A stretch of DNA of 64,000 nucleotides from a virus. Taxonomy: Duplodnaviria > Caudoviricetes. Where the stretch lies: IMG/VR virus record IMGVR_UViG_3300021254_000021, positions 188,373 to 252,372 of that record; one strand, given 5' to 3'. The position numbers were made by a program, and so were the translations under genes. This document shows positions 3,135 through 14,656 of the stretch, piece by piece (position 1 is the stretch's first letter; every line of letters begins with the position of its first letter). The notes below the pieces were generated by a model. The model was not told the DNA's origin. It did no database searches and was given only the letters and a program-made list of their open reading frames with translations.

Positions 3135-3428
3135 ATGATGTCTAAGGCGGATGATTTAAACAGAGGTATTACGCAATGCCTACGAAACATTGAATGGATG
3201 GAAGCTCAACTTTCCTTACTTAGGGTTATGAAGTTCACACAAGCTCAACCTTTTCTGGATCAAATAGGATATAATTGGGCACGAGTCAGAGAGATGCTTT
3301 CTGAGTTAAATTCTTTGGGTATTCGGTATAAGAAGGATAGGACATACTATATATCTAAGCCCGATATAATATCGAAAGTTTGGAATTACACAGAGATGAT
3401 TCAGAAGTCAACTACCCACGGGCTTTAG
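3135..3428 (+). CDS. hypothetical protein
   Basis: RBS AGGAG before ATG 3135; stop codon lies inside the IS-type palindrome at 3407-3441. Confidence 0.6.
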   Translation: MMSKADDLNRGITQCLRNIEWMEAQLSLLRVMKFTQAQPFLDQIGYNWARVREMLSELNSLGIRYKKDRTYYISKPDIISKVWNYTEMIQKSTTHGL

Positions 3429-3441
3429 CCCGTGGGTTTCC
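3407..3441. mobile_element. IS200/IS605-type terminal palindrome remnant
   Basis: GTCAACTACCCACGGGCTTTAGCCCGTGGGTTTCC; same family as the tnpB right end at 52515-52548. Confidence 0.7.
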
Positions 3442-3457
3442 TGCTCACAATTTAGAA

Positions 3458-4975
3458 ATGAAAGTCAGACTTTTAAAAGCAAGTAATCTTTCCATAGCTT
3501 ATAATAAACAACCCATTCTCGCCAACATTTCTTTTGAGATAGAGGAAGGGGAATGGGTTTTGATACAGGGTTTTAATGGAGAGGGCAAGACTACACTAAT
3601 TAAAACCCTGTTAAATCTACATCCTTATGATGGTAGCATTAAGTTAAAAGGAAAAGAGATAAGAGAATACACTATAAACGAATTACACAGGTTATTCTCT
3701 TACTTGCCGCAACGTCTTTCTCATATACCAAATATTACCGTTTCCGATTTCTTATCCTTGTATAATGGTGATAAGGATAGAATTGTACGTAGGTTAAACC
3801 TAGCACATCTACTGGATTCCTCTTTAACGTCGTTATCTTTAGGACAGGTACAGCTTGTTTTGTTTGCACAGGCAGTCTTAGAGGACGCGGAAATTATTAT
3901 TCTGGATGAGCCTTTTTCATCCATAGACAGTGAGAATAAAGAGATTATTTACTCAACCATTAAGGATATGTCTTTAATGGGTAAAACGATTATTCTGGTA
4001 TCGCATGAGGTGGAACGGAATTATCTACCAGACCGTATTATTACGCTTTCAAATAGCAAGTCTTATGACTCCCCCGTTCTGGTAAAACAAAGAGTAAATA
4101 AAGAAATTGAGTGTTTACCTAAGTTGAATACTAAGCCTATTTTAATAGGTTCATTTATCCTAGTTATAATCTCATGTTTCATTCCATCTAATACACCCAT
4201 CTTACTAAGAGTTGTATGGTGTACCATTTCAGGTGGTGTCTTTGCTTTTATTGGGGCAGTTTTACAGCAACTTTATAAAAGAGAGACAGCAACGCCGAAC
4301 ACGTTAGGTATTACATCTTTTAGTATATTAGGTGCAGTTTTACCCTCTTTATTAGGCATAGCTTCATTCTTAATAGATTCACTATTCGCTGTAATATGCG
4401 GGTTAATCAATGGATTATTTTTAGTCAAAAGAAATACAGTAACTTATGGTGTGATAGGCGGGCTAGGTATAGTATTATCCTTATTATTCTACGCTACTAA
4501 TAACCCGTCTTATTTCCATTGGATTATAGGATCTTTTGACATAGACACCTACTTTTCTCTTTTCCTTTTACCATTCATTCTTTTACCATTACTTGTTATT
4601 TATCATTATTCTAATATGATAAATGCTTTAGGAATAGATGCTGATATTGCCAGAGTGCATGGTATTCATCCTAATAGGATACGTTTACTCGCACTAGGTT
4701 TATCCATTATCCCGATAGCGTTGACGGTATCACAAACAGGGTTACTCTTTTTTGTAAGCATGGTTATACCTTTAGCTATAACAAACAGGTATGGTATTTC
4801 TCTACGTAAGACATTACCCTCTATCTTTTTATTAGGGTCTTGTTTTACGTTACTCTCAGACATAGTAACACGTATAATAAACCACTTTACAATCTTAGAG
4901 ACTATAACGTGTGTAACTATGTTTGTTTTAAGCATTCCTTTACTTATTACATTTTCTTTTCTTAGGGGTAAGTGA
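3458..4975 (+). CDS. ABC transporter ATPase fused to FecCD/BtuC-type permease
   Basis: Walker A GFNGEGKTT, signature LSLGQ, Walker B ILDEP, H-loop VSHE; then multi-TM domain with FecCD-like LQQLYKRETATPNTLGI and ALGIDADIARVHGI; start uncertain. Confidence 0.85.
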   Translation: MKVRLLKASNLSIAYNKQPILANISFEIEEGEWVLIQGFNGEGKTTLIKTLLNLHPYDGSIKLKGKEIREYTINELHRLFSYLPQRLSHIPNITVSDFLSLYNGDKDRIVRRLNLAHLLDSSLTSLSLGQVQLVLFAQAVLEDAEIIILDEPFSSIDSENKEIIYSTIKDMSLMGKTIILVSHEVERNYLPDRIITLSNSKSYDSPVLVKQRVNKEIECLPKLNTKPILIGSFILVIISCFIPSNTPILLRVVWCTISGGVFAFIGAVLQQLYKRETATPNTLGITSFSILGAVLPSLLGIASFLIDSLFAVICGLINGLFLVKRNTVTYGVIGGLGIVLSLLFYATNNPSYFHWIIGSFDIDTYFSLFLLPFILLPLLVIYHYSNMINALGIDADIARVHGIHPNRIRLLALGLSIIPIALTVSQTGLLFFVSMVIPLAITNRYGISLRKTLPSIFLLGSCFTLLSDIVTRIINHFTILETITCVTMFVLSIPLLITFSFLRGK

Positions 4976-5559: not shown

Positions 5560-5717
5560 AGCTATCAAGTATAAGGAATTGAAACCTCCAATGTGTTTCA
5601 GATACATTGTTTCAGATGGTCTTTGATAATTGAATAATCCTTTTTCTGATCTCATAAATCATCTCCTGTGTGAATGGCAAGGGGTGAATAATCGTGATGA
5701 TTATGATCATCCCGTTT

Positions 5718-5800
5718 GGGTAGGTAGCGAAGTGGCTAAACGCGGCGGGCTGTAAACCCGCTCCCCTACGGGTTCGGTGGTTCAAATCCATCCCTACCCA
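5718..5800 (+). tRNA. tRNA-Tyr(GTA)
   Basis: acceptor GGGTAGG/CCTACCC, anticodon arm GCGGG-CTGTAAA-CCCGC, long variable arm, T-loop TTCAAAT. Confidence 0.95.
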
Positions 5801-5946
5801 TTACCACAATTATGAACGTCGTATCGGGCTAATAGGTTTCCCCTGTGATGCTATCTTGATCTATCGTATCTAATTGTGGTTTAGCCAGATTTCGTGAAGG
5901 AGTAATACTGACAATTAATTGTTATGTACCTAGGAATTTGGCTTTT

Positions 5947-6019
5947 GCACCATTAATTCAGTTGGAAGAATAACTGCCTTCTAAGCAGTAAGTCGCAAGT
6001 TCGAGTCTTGCATGGTGTA
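5947..6019 (+). tRNA. tRNA-Arg(TCT)
   Basis: GCACCAT/ATGGTGT acceptor, ACTGC-CTTCTAA-GCAGT, TTCGAGT T-loop. Confidence 0.93.
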
Positions 6020-6170
6020 TTTTAATCCTTTTTACTTTAAATTATATGCTTTGAGTGCCTTAGTAGGAACAACTAAAGTATCATAGTCTCTATAATTTAG
6101 ATTAATCTAACACTTACTATAAAAGTAAGAAAGGATATTAGGCAGGAAATTGTTAGTGACCTCCACATTT

Positions 6171-6244
6171 TCTGGTTTAGTTCAGTGGTAGAACGCCCAC
6201 TAGACTTGTAGTGAGAGACATCGGTTCGATTCCGATATCCGGAG
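6171..6244 (+). ncRNA. tRNA-like RNA with non-canonical anticodon arm
   Basis: canonical D arm GTTC-AGTGGTA-GAAC and T arm ATCGG-TTCGATT-CCGAT; anticodon arm CACTA-GACTTG-TAGTG lacks a 7-nt loop. Confidence 0.7.
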
Positions 6245-6358
6245 TTACCAATCTTCACCTAATTAATTTAGGTCTGTAAAGCACGCGAATAATTAACTAG
6301 TTAATTATTCTATAAAGTGCAAAAAGAAGGGAAGTAGGAATGCAGTGACCTACTATTT

Positions 6359-6435
6359 AGCGGTGTAGCAGAATAGGTTCATGCGGTGGCCTTATAAGCC
6401 ATGTCATTATGTGGGTTCAACCCCCACCACCGCTA
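6359..6435 (+). tRNA. tRNA-Ile(TAT)
   Basis: AGCGGTG/CACCGCT acceptor, GTGGC-CTTATAA-GCCAT anticodon arm, GTGGG-TTCAACC-CCCAC T arm. Confidence 0.88.
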
Positions 6436-6513
6436 TTGCCGTTGGGATACGACATGTCCGATTTTTGAGGACTAAATAACCCCGATAGCCTGTGTCGTTA
6501 AACAGGCATTTAT

Positions 6514-6600
6514 GGGCGTGTAGTTTAATATGGTAAAACAACTCTCGCGAGGAATATAGAAATATATTCGTAGAAATAGGTTCGAGTCCTGTCACGTCCC
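6514..6600 (+). ncRNA. tRNA-like RNA; anticodon arm replaced by a GAAA-capped hairpin region
   Basis: GGGCGTG/CACGTCC acceptor, D arm, ATAGG-TTCGAGT-CCTGT T arm; middle contains GAATATA-GAAA-TATATTC. Confidence 0.7.
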
Positions 6601-6610
6601 AAGCATCTTA

Positions 6611-6711
6611 TGGGCTGTAGTTTAAAATATGGTAACAGAACACTGATGAGATAGTCACTTTAGATTAATCTAAGGGATCAGAGGTCTTGGGTTCAAATCC
6701 CGGCAGTCAGA
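6611..6711 (+). ncRNA. tRNA-like RNA with ~29-nt expanded anticodon loop
   Basis: D arm, CTGAT/ATCAG anticodon stem enclosing the palindrome TTAGATTAATCTAA, AGGTC variable loop, TTGGG-TTCAAAT-CCCGG T arm. Confidence 0.65.
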
Positions 6712-6860
6712 TTTTTCTATGTATGGTAGAAAAACGTAGAGTGGAAGAGGGGCTTCGTTAATTCCCCTTTCAAGCAATCGAATTATTTATAGATTGAGAT
6801 CTCCTATAAGTAATTGCGGATTGTAATAAGTAACTAAGACCATACAACTTAGTTACTTTT

Positions 6861-7173
6861 GCCAGTGTGGCGAAATTGGTAGTACGCAGCGGACTTGGTT
6901 ATTTGAGCCGTATATCGGGAAACTATATACGGGATGTGGGCTAATTCGGTGAAAGTCTTAGCAAGTAAAGTTGAAGATAACGCCGAGCTAAATCAGGATT
7001 TAATATTCTGTAAATGTGTAGAGAACATATACCCACAACCTAAACACTTAATAGTGCATGGTTAAGACATGTTCCAGACTACAACCCTTATAATAAGGGG
7101 CTATGGAAACATAGAGTAGTAAGAAAATCCGCTTCCCTTTACGGGAGTGTGAGTTCGAGTCTCACCACTGGTA
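6861..7173 (+). tRNA. trnL: tRNA-Leu(TAA) interrupted by a group I intron
   Basis: exon 1 6861-6896 ends GCGGA-CTT, exon 2 7124-7173 starts AAAA-TCCGC, giving loop CTTAAAA; acceptor GCCAGTG/CACTGGT. Confidence 0.92.
6897..7123 (+). ncRNA. group I intron (IC3-like, 227 nt, no ORF)
   Basis: inserted at U^AA of the anticodon, ends in G; TTGAGCC guide region, P3 GTGGG/CCCAC, P7 GAACA/TGTTC, layout parallels the cyanobacterial trnL intron. Confidence 0.88.
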
Positions 7174-7259
7174 TTAGAGAAGAAATAAATAGTGTAAAAA
7201 CTATTTATAAAACCCAGAGTATGATTGGCTTGCCGAACACAGCTCTGGTCTTCTCTTTT

Positions 7260-7347
7260 AGAAGGTTGGCCGAGTGGTCTAAGGCGCACGACTGGAAATC
7301 GTGTAAACCCCTAAAGGGTTTCGTGGGTTCAAATCCCACACCTTCTG
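7260..7347 (+). tRNA. tRNA-Ser(GGA)
   Basis: AGAAGGT/ACCTTCT, CACGA-CTGGAAA-TCGTG, long variable arm, G discriminator. Confidence 0.95.
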
Positions 7348-7681
7348 TTTAGCTTTGTTTAGCACTTTGGGTGCAATATTCCTTAGAGGAATGACAAAGC
7401 TATTTTTGTTTTATGTCCTGTTGTTCTTTTTCGTTAGATCATGGTCTTGCATGATCATAGGCAGACACACCTCATAACTTGTAATGAGGTTTTAGAAATA
7501 CATTTTAATGTATGTGTAGTAAGGGCGTATATGCCTTCCTATTCCGTATGTGATGTCTTTGTAGCACTCATCACAGCTCCTAATACAAGTGGAAAGCCCC
7601 AAGTAATACCGTTATTATTTGGGGCTTTTTCGTATATCTATTAAGGTGTTATTTATTCCTTTTAGCATAAGGATATTTATT

Positions 7682-8182
7682 ATGTTTTTACCTGCAAGAA
7701 AGGCTTGTGCTTTTTATGGTATTTGTATTAGAACTTTGCATAGATGGAGAGATAGTGGTAAGATTAATATAGTTTCGTCACCCTCTGGGAGAGCGCTTTA
7801 TGAATGTGTTATATTAGACGATAATGCCAGAAAGGATTATTGTTACTGCTGTGTAAAGGAAGATTCAGATAAAGCGAATCTTTTAAAACAAGAGGAAGTG
7901 TTGTCAGAACTATATCCTAAATGTACCATACTTAAAGATATAGGGGTTGGGTATGACAGAGAGAAATTTACCTTCCTTGTAGATGAAGTGATAAAGCGTC
8001 ATGTAAGTAAAATCATTGTTATATCTAAAGATATTCTCTTTGATAAAGAGTCCGACTTTGATTTTTTCCAATTCATTCTTAGCAGATGCCAGACTGATAT
8101 TATTATACCGCAAACAAAATTTGGTACGGAAATGGAGAATAAAAAGAAGATTCTATCTATCTTATCGAAACTTGGGAAATAG
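7682..8182 (+). CDS. IS607-type MerR-HTH/serine recombinase homolog, catalytic motif degenerate
   Basis: KACAFYGICIRTLHRWRDSGKI HTH; YCCVK where YxRVS is expected; DIG, KIIVISKD resolvase-like segments. Confidence 0.7.
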   Translation: MFLPARKACAFYGICIRTLHRWRDSGKINIVSSPSGRALYECVILDDNARKDYCYCCVKEDSDKANLLKQEEVLSELYPKCTILKDIGVGYDREKFTFLVDEVIKRHVSKIIVISKDILFDKESDFDFFQFILSRCQTDIIIPQTKFGTEMENKKKILSILSKLGK

Positions 8183-9064: not shown

Positions 9065-9734
9065 GGCTATGGTAGATCTATTAAAGAAAAAAGTGAGTAT
9101 ATCACACCCACAATTCCTTCAATTCCTTTACCCACACTTCCAATTTATTACAGACTTTAAACAGGTAATAGATTACTCACAAGGGGTAATATACAAAGGG
9201 TTAATATCCGAAACCATCTTGAATAAACTGGAATGCCTAACAGATGGGAAATACATCCTTCTAACAGACATAGGGGAAGTGGTACTATACACACCTAGTG
9301 ATTATGTAAAAATACTGTTTCCTGTCATAGCTGATAAAGCAGAACAATATAACAACTATGACTTGGAACAATTTATCCCTATACTAAAACAATATTACAT
9401 CCTACAAAAGAAACCTCCACTGTTAAAAGAAGATGAAACAGGAATATTTGGATTGTATAAGGCTTTGGTTTCATCCAAAGAGGCTTTGCATAAAGAATAT
9501 TTCTCACTATTGAACACTCTTTCCATTAAGGTGGTGGCATCATCCATACTAACCTTTTTACTAAAGGTTAAAGAGCAAAATTTCAATAATTGCTCATCCT
9601 CTTATAAAAAGTTAATCAATACGGCGTACCTTAAATTTGGTACACGGATAAAACCTGCAATACAAACGTATATTGAATCAGACCAAAAGCCAGAGATAGC
9701 TCTATGGCTTTTATTAGACACCCTTAATGGGTAA
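9057..9734 (+). CDS. hypothetical protein
   Basis: 225-aa ORF overlapping the upstream gene. Confidence 0.65.
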   Translation: MTKAMVDLLKKKVSISHPQFLQFLYPHFQFITDFKQVIDYSQGVIYKGLISETILNKLECLTDGKYILLTDIGEVVLYTPSDYVKILFPVIADKAEQYNNYDLEQFIPILKQYYILQKKPPLLKEDETGIFGLYKALVSSKEALHKEYFSLLNTLSIKVVASSILTFLLKVKEQNFNNCSSSYKKLINTAYLKFGTRIKPAIQTYIESDQKPEIALWLLLDTLNG

Positions 9735-9762
9735 TAACCTTTAAACACAGGAGACATTCATC

Positions 9763-10161
9763 ATGGAAAAAATTATTATGGAACTTAAAAAGAAGGTGGA
9801 GAGTTATACATTGCCAGAAGGCATGGAGTCTATCCCACCTTACTCCTCAATCAAAACCTCAAAAGAAGAACTGTATAAGAAATACTCAAGCACGATTATG
9901 TACTATAACAATGTGTGTGAAACACTGTCAAAACTACAATATACCTCTATTACAGTTGATCGCCTCTTAAAAGAGCTGTCCAATTCACAAGAAGTATTCT
10001 CAAAACAAAAACTATATTCTACGGAATTAAAAGCATTAAAAGAAGAAACAAAAGGGCTGATAGATGCTTATAAATTCCTTAAAGATGGACTGGAAGCCAC
10101 TGTACGCTTCTATAATAGTACACAGTATTTGTTGACCAGTTATCGCCTAGAAGATTGCTAA
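9763..10161 (+). CDS. hypothetical helical protein
   Basis: RBS AGGAG; coiled-coil character. Confidence 0.65.
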   Translation: MEKIIMELKKKVESYTLPEGMESIPPYSSIKTSKEELYKKYSSTIMYYNNVCETLSKLQYTSITVDRLLKELSNSQEVFSKQKLYSTELKALKEETKGLIDAYKFLKDGLEATVRFYNSTQYLLTSYRLEDC

Positions 10162-12887: not shown

Positions 12888-13160
12888 GTGATGTCAGATT
12901 ATTTAAAAGAGTGTGCGGACAAGGCGGTGATGGTATTCAAGGCAAACGGTATTAAATCAGAACATTACCCTTCTTTACTTGAATCCTTATTTAAGGATAT
13001 GGAGCTTATTTATCATGGGATAAGTAAAGAGCAGGTAGATGAATTAAAGGGGTTTGGTTTTGACTTATATAAAATGAATATGGATGAGCGTAGAAGCATT
13101 CTTTTCCAGATGTCCCTTTGCAGGGTACTTTGTCACCTGAATGAAAAGATAAAAGGTTAA
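12888..13160 (+). CDS. hypothetical protein
   Basis: behind repeat element + RBS. Confidence 0.7.
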   Translation: MMSDYLKECADKAVMVFKANGIKSEHYPSLLESLFKDMELIYHGISKEQVDELKGFGFDLYKMNMDERRSILFQMSLCRVLCHLNEKIKG

Positions 13161-13247
13161 AGTTTTGCTTAAATAAGGCTTACAGAGATTTGGGAATTAT
13201 TCCTTTATCTCTTATTTAACAGACCAACTTTAAAAAAGGAGAGAGCG

Positions 13248-13622
13248 ATGAGTAAAACAAGACAGGCAGTAGTAATCCCCGTTTCATTAAAAGACAAACC
13301 TTATGTCACTACCATAAAGGATCATTATACAGCCTATTATCCGATTATTGGTTGTCGTTGTTTCGACATGGTAGAGTTGTGGGAGAAGGGTCATAAATCA
13401 GTGGATTGTTATGTGGATGATGAGGGTATGATTAACGGTTCACCAGTCAATGAGTATTGGCTTAGGGCGTACCAATTGGGTATTGTAAACAATCCTTTGT
13501 TTGGTATCTGTGTCATTACCATGACGGACACAAATACGGGAGATTCCACAGAGACGGATTTAAACCTTGTTAAAGAGGTGTTAAGAAGATACGGGTTTAC
13601 CCGAGACGAACTTTCCTTTTAG
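13248..13622 (+). CDS. hypothetical protein (DUF3846-like)
   Basis: IIGC..FDMV, YVDDEG..NGSPVN, LFG pattern. Confidence 0.55.
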   Translation: MSKTRQAVVIPVSLKDKPYVTTIKDHYTAYYPIIGCRCFDMVELWEKGHKSVDCYVDDEGMINGSPVNEYWLRAYQLGIVNNPLFGICVITMTDTNTGDSTETDLNLVKEVLRRYGFTRDELSF

Positions 13623-14098: not shown

Positions 14099-14656
14099 AT
14101 GGCGAAAGACATCAATAATAAAGAAATCGTGTCTGGTTATGTTGTAGAGATTAAAGGTGCTTACAGCAAATTAGATAATGGTTTGTGGTATGTTGACCAT
14201 TCTTCTGACAGAGGGGTCTGGTTACACAAGTTAAATAAGGATATGAGCAAGAGCAAAGGTAAAAATACCTGTACAGGTTGGCCCCTCCGTTCATACAGCA
14301 ATAACCGTTACAAACGTTGTGAGATTAACGAGTATAATGAGGCCAATGCCACAATAGAGATGCTTTGTCCTTATGTAGAACCTACTCCGAAACCAGTGAG
14401 CAATGAAATTAAGATTTTAAAGAAAGGGATTCGGAAAGGTGATAAATACTATCCATGCTATTACTGGAAAAACAGTGATGGCACTGTGACTGTCTATGCA
14501 AAAGACTATGGCTATGACGGCCTTCCCAGTGGTTTGGGTAATGTCATCAATGAATCAAACGGACAAATCGACTACTTTGAGAAAAGCCACTGTTATTTAA
14601 AGGAAGGGGATAGATACTATAATGAAGTGATGGCTGTTGTTACCAAACACTCTTAA
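14099..14656 (+). CDS. hypothetical protein, paralog of 15487-16032
   Basis: shared DNGLW, HKLNKDM, LCPYVEP.PKPVSN.IKI, CYYWK, DYFE. Confidence 0.75.
   Translation: MAKDINNKEIVSGYVVEIKGAYSKLDNGLWYVDHSSDRGVWLHKLNKDMSKSKGKNTCTGWPLRSYSNNRYKRCEINEYNEANATIEMLCPYVEPTPKPVSNEIKILKKGIRKGDKYYPCYYWKNSDGTVTVYAKDYGYDGLPSGLGNVINESNGQIDYFEKSHCYLKEGDRYYNEVMAVVTKHS

Follow-up and report, generated by a model that had tools for sequence, protein, structure and literature searches.

In the tRNA cluster of phage T4, two small stable RNAs, species I and II, lie among the tRNAs and are cut from their primary transcript (PMC2330249). YrlA and the bacterial and phage Y RNAs (Rfam RF02553) are non-decoding mimics of the D arm, the T arm, and the acceptor; some of them undergo cleavage by RNase P and addition of CCA (Chen et al. 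2014, PMC4201824). Phage tRNA clusters are also described, in four reports, as countering defenses that cleave tRNAs; the examples given there are the tRNAs of T5, which act against PARIS and against retron/PtuAB, and the tRNA-Tyr of T6, which acts against Septu (PMC10264068, PMC11464382, PMC11555353, PMC13096335). Here, we analyze three tRNA-shaped genes, referred to as elements A, B, and C, in the tRNA operon of a virus of the Caudoviricetes (IMG/VR record IMGVR_UViG_3300021254_000021). Unless a contig is named, coordinates refer to the window, which is the whole 64,000-nucleotide stretch analyzed and forms the last 64 kb of this single-contig, 252,372-bp virus record (35.8% G+C; estimated to be 94% complete). 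We favor, at a probability of about 0.5, a reading in which elements A and B would be accessory genes under selection whose RNAs, produced from the transcript of the tRNA operon, mimic tRNAs without decoding.

A preliminary description of this region, made from the sequence alone, had claimed that segments 6171 to 6244, 6514 to 6600, and 6611 to 6711 keep the acceptor, D, and T arms of a tRNA around a rebuilt anticodon region, and Rfam, ARAGORN, and secondary structure folds bear this out. Each gene combines a 7-bp acceptor with a D arm and a T arm bearing the T-loop consensus (6/7, 7/7, and 6/7 acceptor pairs in elements A, B, and C, respectively), and the elbow of elements A and B retains U8, A14, and G18G19. 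A scanner for the tRNA frame, in which T arm, D arm, and 7-bp acceptor were all obligatory and the middle was unconstrained, was run on both strands of all 252,372 bases and gave matches only within the tRNA cluster; the frames of the three elements are therefore not chance occurrences. Their 3′ trailers are U-rich and lack an encoded CCA, as in the neighboring tRNAs.

Element A (6171 to 6244, + strand; U1-A72, discriminator G) scores 43.1 bits against the Rfam tRNA model (RF00005), above the gathering threshold of 29 bits. Its anticodon side gives the same fold whether free or constrained by the frame: a 5-bp stem (6198 to 6202 with 6209 to 6213) closed by a 6-nt loop, with the stem reaching 7 bp across a C.A mismatch, in agreement with the longer stem and 6-nt loop originally proposed. 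One U.U mismatch leaves 6/7 acceptor positions paired in this genome, compared to 7/7 in five of the eight known alleles. Element B (6514 to 6600, + strand; discriminator C) also exceeds the threshold, at 41.7 bits, and has a fully paired (7/7) acceptor containing G3.U70. The middle of this gene folds into two hairpins in immediate succession, a 3-bp mini-hairpin (6542 to 6551) and a 7-bp hairpin with a GAAA tetraloop as its cap (6552 to 6569, + strand). Element C (6611 to 6711, + strand), a weak tRNA-shaped paralogue of element B, falls below the threshold (22.3 bits, E value of 0.15). A 5-bp stem (6643 to 6647 with 6677 to 6681) encloses 29 nt containing a palindromic hairpin. In the acceptor, 6/7 positions are paired; one position is a G.A mismatch, and the terminal one is U.G. 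The GAAA-capped hairpin of element B and the 29-nt palindromic loop of element C had likewise been anticipated, and the folds confirm both. For elements A and B, the frame-constrained energy equals the minimum free energy (MFE) of the free sequence; the constrained fold of element C is 2.8 kcal/mol worse than its free MFE.

The canonical 5-bp anticodon stem with its loop of 7 nt, in which U33 and a purine at position 37 are expected, is present in none of the three genes. The best canonical anticodon stem forms 3/5 pairs in each of them, and the Rfam alignment passes over the anticodon arms of elements A and B. ARAGORN, a check that had been suggested at the outset, misses element C and calls the other two with broken anticodon stems: element A is labeled "Val(gac)" only by tolerating two anticodon-stem mismatches, and element B is labeled "Arg(gcg)" with 2/5 anticodon-stem pairs broken. 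The modules of elements A and B cannot present an anticodon and hence do not decode, and for annotation purposes both the tRNA-Val and the tRNA-Arg label are wrong.

The genes might nevertheless be working decoders, either odd-loop tRNAs used for frameshifting or recoding or tRNAs whose small inserts are spliced out as introns, but we regard this as extremely improbable. Near-canonical genes with expanded anticodon loops do occur in related phages, one of them Lys(UUU)-like with a loop of 9 nt (contig L021, 15603 to 15675) and the other with an 8-nt loop, to which ARAGORN gives a 4-base anticodon (contig L003, 16388 to 16464), and removal of 22 nt from element C leaves a formal 7-nt loop. The solution for element C, however, is anticodon AAG on a class I frame, which is implausible. 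When every single contiguous deletion was enumerated, none restored a canonical arm in five alleles of element A or in element B, and the tiny non-canonical introns entertained in the preliminary description are rejected for these two genes. However the loops of elements A and B are read, U33 never precedes a triplet that has a purine after it at 37, and, translated with the standard code, the open reading frames (ORFs) of the window run through. Furthermore, we know of no bacterial machinery for excising inserts of 3 to 29 nt.

Relatives were reached through a flanking hypothetical protein (1436 to 2281) and DNA probes, giving the syntenic contigs L002, L003, L010, L011, L013, L015, L016, L019/L022, L021, and L023 to L025, which come only from rumen and ruminant-gut metagenomes. 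No close relative was detected by blastn in a collection of 50,697 phage records; exact-pattern scans of IMG/VR for the arm of element A and the 3′ half of element B returned no match, and IMG/VR searches through two flanking proteins gave nothing useful. Element A is represented by eight distinct alleles among the window and the related phages and is not in L003, L024, or L025. Across these alleles, 97.7% of cells in the acceptor, D, and T helices are paired, and in four pairs (2-71, 3-70, 5-68, and one T-stem pair) both partners have been substituted. Of 500 shuffles, 1 reached the covariation score, and pairing falls to 30 to 54% in controls with slid partners. The covariation check proposed in the preliminary description is thus answered in the affirmative for the acceptor and T stems of element A.

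The anticodon side of element A exists in two forms. The type 1 module (6195 to 6219, + strand) is identical in the window, L002, L010, and L015; in these four alleles, 0/25 odd-arm columns and 0/18 D-arm columns vary, compared to 5/14 acceptor columns and 26/117 columns of the downstream spacer in the same four sequences. At the spacer rate, the chance of 25 invariant columns is ∼0.002. The type 2 module (L011, L013, L016, and L019) is longer, with a conserved core and a variable run of A residues, and is carried on the same frame. The rebuilt arm of element A is the best-kept part of the gene, in two alternative versions, and this is therefore not the pattern that decay produces; an even spread of mutations across the arms, named in the preliminary description as a refuting sign, is not seen among the type 1 alleles. 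We argue for selection on element A because its frame covaries and its odd arm is invariant in four alleles.

These data bear directly on the view that the elements are tRNA pseudogenes or recombination scars in a cluster churned by homing endonucleases, their apparent conservation being due only to exchange and homogenization of the whole block between co-infecting phages. We consider this view unlikely overall: compensatory changes hold the acceptor and T stems of element A paired, the supposedly damaged arm is its least variable part, four further alleles bear another conserved module on this frame, and the D and T arms are intact in every copy. Families F and G, described below, add invariant loops on covarying stems. 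What speaks for scars is an acceptor mismatch in three of the four type 1 alleles (one each) and the mosaic nature of the cluster core. Relative to L002, the closest relative, the flanks of the window are 97 to 99% identical, and the cluster core is 80 to 87% identical. HNH endonuclease ORFs lie within the clusters of relatives. In L002 (96% identical), a cassette comprising tRNA-Met(CAU) and a 266-amino-acid Cys-rich ORF interrupts tRNA-Ile(UAU), whose anticodon loop is gone (5911 to 6990); further along, an HNH_3 endonuclease ORF (7450 to 8005) lies just before tRNA-Leu, and the first 10 nt of the tRNA are duplicated. On the minus strand of L023 (scan coordinates 9710 to 9776), a chimeric gene runs directly from the 5′ half of element B into the T arm and the 3′ strand of the acceptor from another tRNA-shaped family, family E. 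The acceptor strands consequently do not match; the gene is dead and attests to recombination among tRNA-like genes. Together, the HNH genes, the broken tRNA-Ile, and the chimera show active cassette exchange, and the accessory pattern of the cluster has cassette boundaries exactly at tRNA 3′ ends.

Element B is found in five contigs (the window, L015, L022, L024, and L025), which differ by one single-nucleotide polymorphism and at the discriminator, this being C in the window and A in the other four. It is not in L002 or L010, its 5′ half has no match in prokaryote genomes, and it is kept as a unit while neighboring genes change. The preliminary proposal of non-decoding mimics, as opposed to random decay, therefore holds up well for element A, on account of covariation and the invariant arm, and for element B, given five near-identical contigs, and is weaker for element C. 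The latter shares its 5′ half with element B by alignment and occurs only in the window and in L010, where it has three substitutions. It contains a 22-nt insertion, 15 nt of which are identical to the spacer at 6096 to 6110. A 14-nt perfect palindrome is present in just two copies in the 252 kb, one in the spacer upstream of element A (6097 to 6110) and the other in the insert of element C (6660 to 6673). By its sequence, element C is most likely a paralogue of element B damaged by insertion, and we read the insertion as the probable outcome of template switching or illegitimate recombination. The shared 15 nt and the weak acceptor both suit a scar, and for element C alone the pseudogene or scar explanation stands at roughly even odds.

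Three other roles for the inserts were considered and rejected. The palindrome does not appear to be a conserved DNA operator, as the spacer copy in relatives is not palindromic and only its right half is invariant. An antisense role found no genomic complement beyond chance matches of ≤11 nt, except for the palindrome of element C against its spacer copy. Finally, the CUGAUGA of element C was examined as a hammerhead core; there was no Rfam ribozyme match up to an E value of 10 and no stem II/GAAA arrangement.

The acceptor of element B raises a separate explanation, in which this gene, and perhaps its relatives, would be an anticodon-independent amino acid acceptor charged by alanyl-tRNA synthetase (AlaRS) through G3.U70 and serving as an aminoacyl donor or as a ligand of EF-Tu and the ribosome similar to transfer-messenger RNA (tmRNA). 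G1-C72, G2-C71, and G3.U70, which make up the anticodon-independent alanine identity set, are present in 5/5 copies of element B and in family F of L021, and G3.U70 is found in none of the canonical tRNAs of the clusters. Reportedly, G3.U70 is sufficient for recognition by AlaRS, and tmRNA uses the same pair (Hou and Schimmel 1988; McClain and Foss 1988). Of the roles listed in the preliminary description, that of aminoacyl donor gains one concrete handle from this pair. The discriminator is A in 4/5 copies, yet it is C in the window; element A lacks G3.U70; there is no tag reading frame and no tmRNA call by ARAGORN; and no gene for a tRNA-dependent transferase was seen adjoining the cluster. 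On balance, we find this explanation very unlikely.

The spacers of the cluster are themselves conserved. The leader abutting element A upstream (6145 to 6170, + strand) is invariant in 7/7 aligned relatives and, used as a probe, recovered L019; a similar leader motif precedes both element A and tRNA-Ile. Spacers 6021 to 6170 and 6245 to 6357 are conserved like genes among phages with ∼50% identical proteins, and compensatory changes occur in hairpins within the intergenic spacers. In comparisons with distant relatives, nucleotide identity is 63 to 72% for protein genes and 83 to 87% for region 5981 to 6379, spacers included. These two spacers may be further structured RNAs or processing signals. 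Conserved spacers and the invariant leader are what would be expected if the elements served only as processing punctuation, directing cuts by RNase P and 3′ enzymes that free structured spacer RNAs and leaving the anticodon side free to change. RNase P is established to need just the acceptor, the T arm, and the elbow, and YrlA is known to be cleaved (PMC4201824). Nevertheless, the transcript is already punctuated by five canonical tRNAs, and punctuation predicts drift on the anticodon side, which is instead the most conserved side in element A and invariant in element B. This makes pure punctuation a decidedly unlikely account.

Returning to the favored reading of selected, non-decoding mimics, elements A and B would be cotranscribed with the five real tRNAs in one operon. 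Their intact frame would let host RNase P, 3′ processing enzymes, and the CCA-adding enzyme yield stable L-shaped RNAs; we infer such processing because the odd genes have the U-rich trailer of the real tRNAs and no encoded CCA and because the phage has no CCA-adding enzyme in its genome. Once made, these RNAs might tie up a tRNA-binding factor that cannot make use of them. Our leading guess for that factor is a host defense nuclease directed at tRNA, with a role as decoy or inhibitor ranked first. This guess comes first because phage tRNA clusters are documented anti-defense loci and because the phage carries an RNA repair pair at C1:148263-150237 (locus L018, 108 to 2082), in which a Metallophos phosphoesterase adjoins an Rnl2-type RNA ligase. 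The ligase comprises a PHA02142 OB domain and an RNA_ligase domain, and this healing-and-sealing pair lies 45 kb upstream of the tRNA cluster; no phage-encoded RtcB is present in the genome.

Several observations weigh against this reading. The covariation sample consists of only eight related alleles, and the copies of element B are near-identical, so that covariation cannot test its fold. The type 1 acceptor mismatches could reflect relaxed constraint or recombinant alleles, and the mismatched acceptors do look like recombinant strand combinations. The whole cluster, including its spacers, is both mosaic and better conserved than the protein genes, and the RNA repair genes are 45 kb away from it. 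Part of the conservation may also be gene conversion by homing endonucleases, that is, drive rather than selection on the RNAs; in T4, the cluster-resident endonuclease SegB recognizes a T-arm DNA motif and drives co-conversion (PMC2330249). It is on account of possible drive that the explanation is held at the probability given above.

Further tRNA-shaped families with enlarged middles extend the pattern in the lineage. In family F (L003, 19263 to 19341; L021, 16122 to 16199) and family G (L003, 19346 to 19438; L022, about 2236 to 2325; L025, 3577 to 3668), a 13-nt loop is identical between relatives that differ in every acceptor, T, and supporting stem, and in family G a covarying 12-nt palindrome takes the place of the anticodon arm. 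Family E occurs in a short form (L002, 7215 to 7299; L022, about 1591 to 1675) and in a long form (L015, 17730 to 17908; L016, 9068 to 9239), and in the latter the anticodon region is a rod of ∼25 bp that ends in a second, inside-out tRNA-like head made of a T arm, a closed acceptor hairpin, and a D arm. A 5′ frame is common to elements B and C, family F, and the gene with an 8-nt loop in L003. The lineage thus repeatedly mounts different conserved modules on tRNA frames. Since the same frame carries alternative conserved modules, the module, and not the frame, would be the business end. A broader and more tentative proposal is that the tRNA frame is a general scaffold whose swappable anticodon-side modules (types 1 and 2 of element A, element B, and families D to G) target different factors of the host or of rivals, with element B doubling as an alanine acceptor via G3.U70. 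If this is true, the frame would guarantee processing, folding, and stability, the modules would give specificity, and the cluster would be a set of RNA-based anti-defense or takeover genes evolving by module swapping.

The genes discussed above lie in an ORF-free tRNA operon of ∼2 kb (5560 to 7635, + strand), which comprises nine tRNA or tRNA-like genes together with conserved structured spacers. According to ARAGORN, the tRNA genes of the whole genome are confined to 5717 to 7348 on the + strand, and that strand has no ORF of at least 60 amino acids between 5559 and 7149. Besides the three elements, the operon contains canonical genes for tRNA-Tyr(GUA) (5717 to 5801, + strand; Rfam score of 61.1 bits), tRNA-Arg(UCU) (5946 to 6020, + strand; 67.5 bits), tRNA-Ile(UAU) (6358 to 6436, + strand; 58.6 bits), and tRNA-Ser(GGA) (7259 to 7348, + strand; 59.4 bits), all called by ARAGORN. 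The fifth tRNA, tRNA-Leu(UAA) (6860 to 7174, + strand), is called when introns are allowed; a group I intron of 227 nt interrupts it after U34, just ahead of A35. A long G+C-rich hairpin followed by a T run, read from the sequence at 7592 to 7632 (+ strand), is a probable intrinsic terminator ending the operon, but it is not among the calls of a consensus terminator scanner. The region between tRNA-Ser and this hairpin (7350 to 7590) is ORF-poor and conserved and has a short motif also found in L010 and L015. A scan for sigma-70-type promoters gave fewer sites than in shuffled sequences and was therefore uninformative. Upstream of the operon are genes for a deoxynucleoside kinase and for a fusion of an ABC ATPase to a permease, and downstream of it is one for a dUTPase. 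The fusion is a single ORF of 531 amino acids (3380 to 4975), joining an ABC transporter ATPase to an FecCD-type permease, whose position is kept in relatives; it is an unusual gene for a phage.

The tRNA-Leu intron gives the only Intron_gpI match, at 31.6 bits, under the Rfam gathering score. Three different tRNAs of the lineage, Leu(UAA), Arg(UCU), and Ile(UAU), carry related group I introns with the same end motif, inserted after U34 and before position 35; the sites are at 6860 to 7174 of the window, L011 (about 14250 to 14606), L013 (about 12990 to 13335), and L021 (15128 to 15467 and 15790 to 16118). The Leu(UAA) genes of L010 and L015 have no intron. Judging by these sequences, this is one intron family spreading among anticodon loops with a common C-U-U. 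In relatives, a conserved non-coding block of ∼400 nt runs from tRNA-Tyr to tRNA-Arg (L002, 5110 to 5480; L003, 16466 to 16800; and L015, 16690 to 17050). This block has no Rfam match and is not in the window, where ∼70 nt are found instead.

Turning to how this locus compares with described systems, we found no paper in the published literature that describes this class of non-decoding phage tRNA-shaped genes, and none of the known systems fits as a family. By principle, YrlA and tmRNA are closest. In YrlA, the order is permuted to T arm, closed acceptor hairpin, and D arm, with a Ro-binding stem formed by the two ends, whereas elements A, B, and C have normal tRNA order and free acceptor ends. 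A YrlA/Ro partnership was ruled out: the 252-kb genome, at its estimated 94% completeness, contains no TROVE/Rsr gene (PF05731), for which control genomes were positive, and the Rfam scan gave no YrlA match. The lineage does come closer to YrlA in the long form of family E (L015 and L016), which nests the inside-out head of the YrlA topology. The tRNA-like domain of tmRNA is, like the elements, an anticodon-less mimic, which AlaRS recognizes via G3.U70; among the three elements, this pair is in element B only. At 87 nt, element B differs from tmRNA in lacking a tag reading frame and pseudoknots and in keeping a full D arm, and ARAGORN (-m) detected no tmRNA in the genome.

The tRNA-shaped mascRNA of MALAT1, the t-elements, and the punctuation of mitochondrial transcripts resemble the present genes in being recognized by RNase P and RNase Z. 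They need no conserved anticodon-side module, however, and belong to another domain of life. The anti-defense phage tRNAs share with the present genes that they are accessory, are altered on the anticodon side, and lie in clusters shaped by homing endonucleases. Those tRNAs do decode, however; they carry point changes and stand in for host tRNAs that have been cleaved (PMC10264068, PMC11464382, PMC11555353, PMC13096335). Elements A, B, and C cannot decode and therefore would have to act as decoys or inhibitors. If the mimic reading is true, conserved non-decoding tRNA-shaped RNAs would be a different class of RNA effector, given that the characterized anti-defense phage tRNAs are all working tRNAs. 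To our knowledge, no non-decoding phage tRNA acting as a decoy or inhibitor has been published.

In position and in probable biogenesis, no precedent is closer than the species I and II RNAs of T4 (rnaC and rnaD). A blastn search against the 50,697 phage records gave no homology to rnaC or rnaD over 6171 to 6711, the region matching canonical tRNAs only, and the host and phage lineages are unrelated, the present virus being a rumen jumbo phage. The genes described here are also distinct in being tRNA-sized, with a full frame and only the anticodon side rebuilt. The likeness lies in the arrangement: elements A, B, and C are on the same strand inside a tRNA cluster with no promoter or ORF between them, the T4 cluster likewise has a resident homing endonuclease, and species I and II are without known function. 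As such, the rumen phage genes would offer a comparative handle on these T4 RNAs, which have been a puzzle for half a century.

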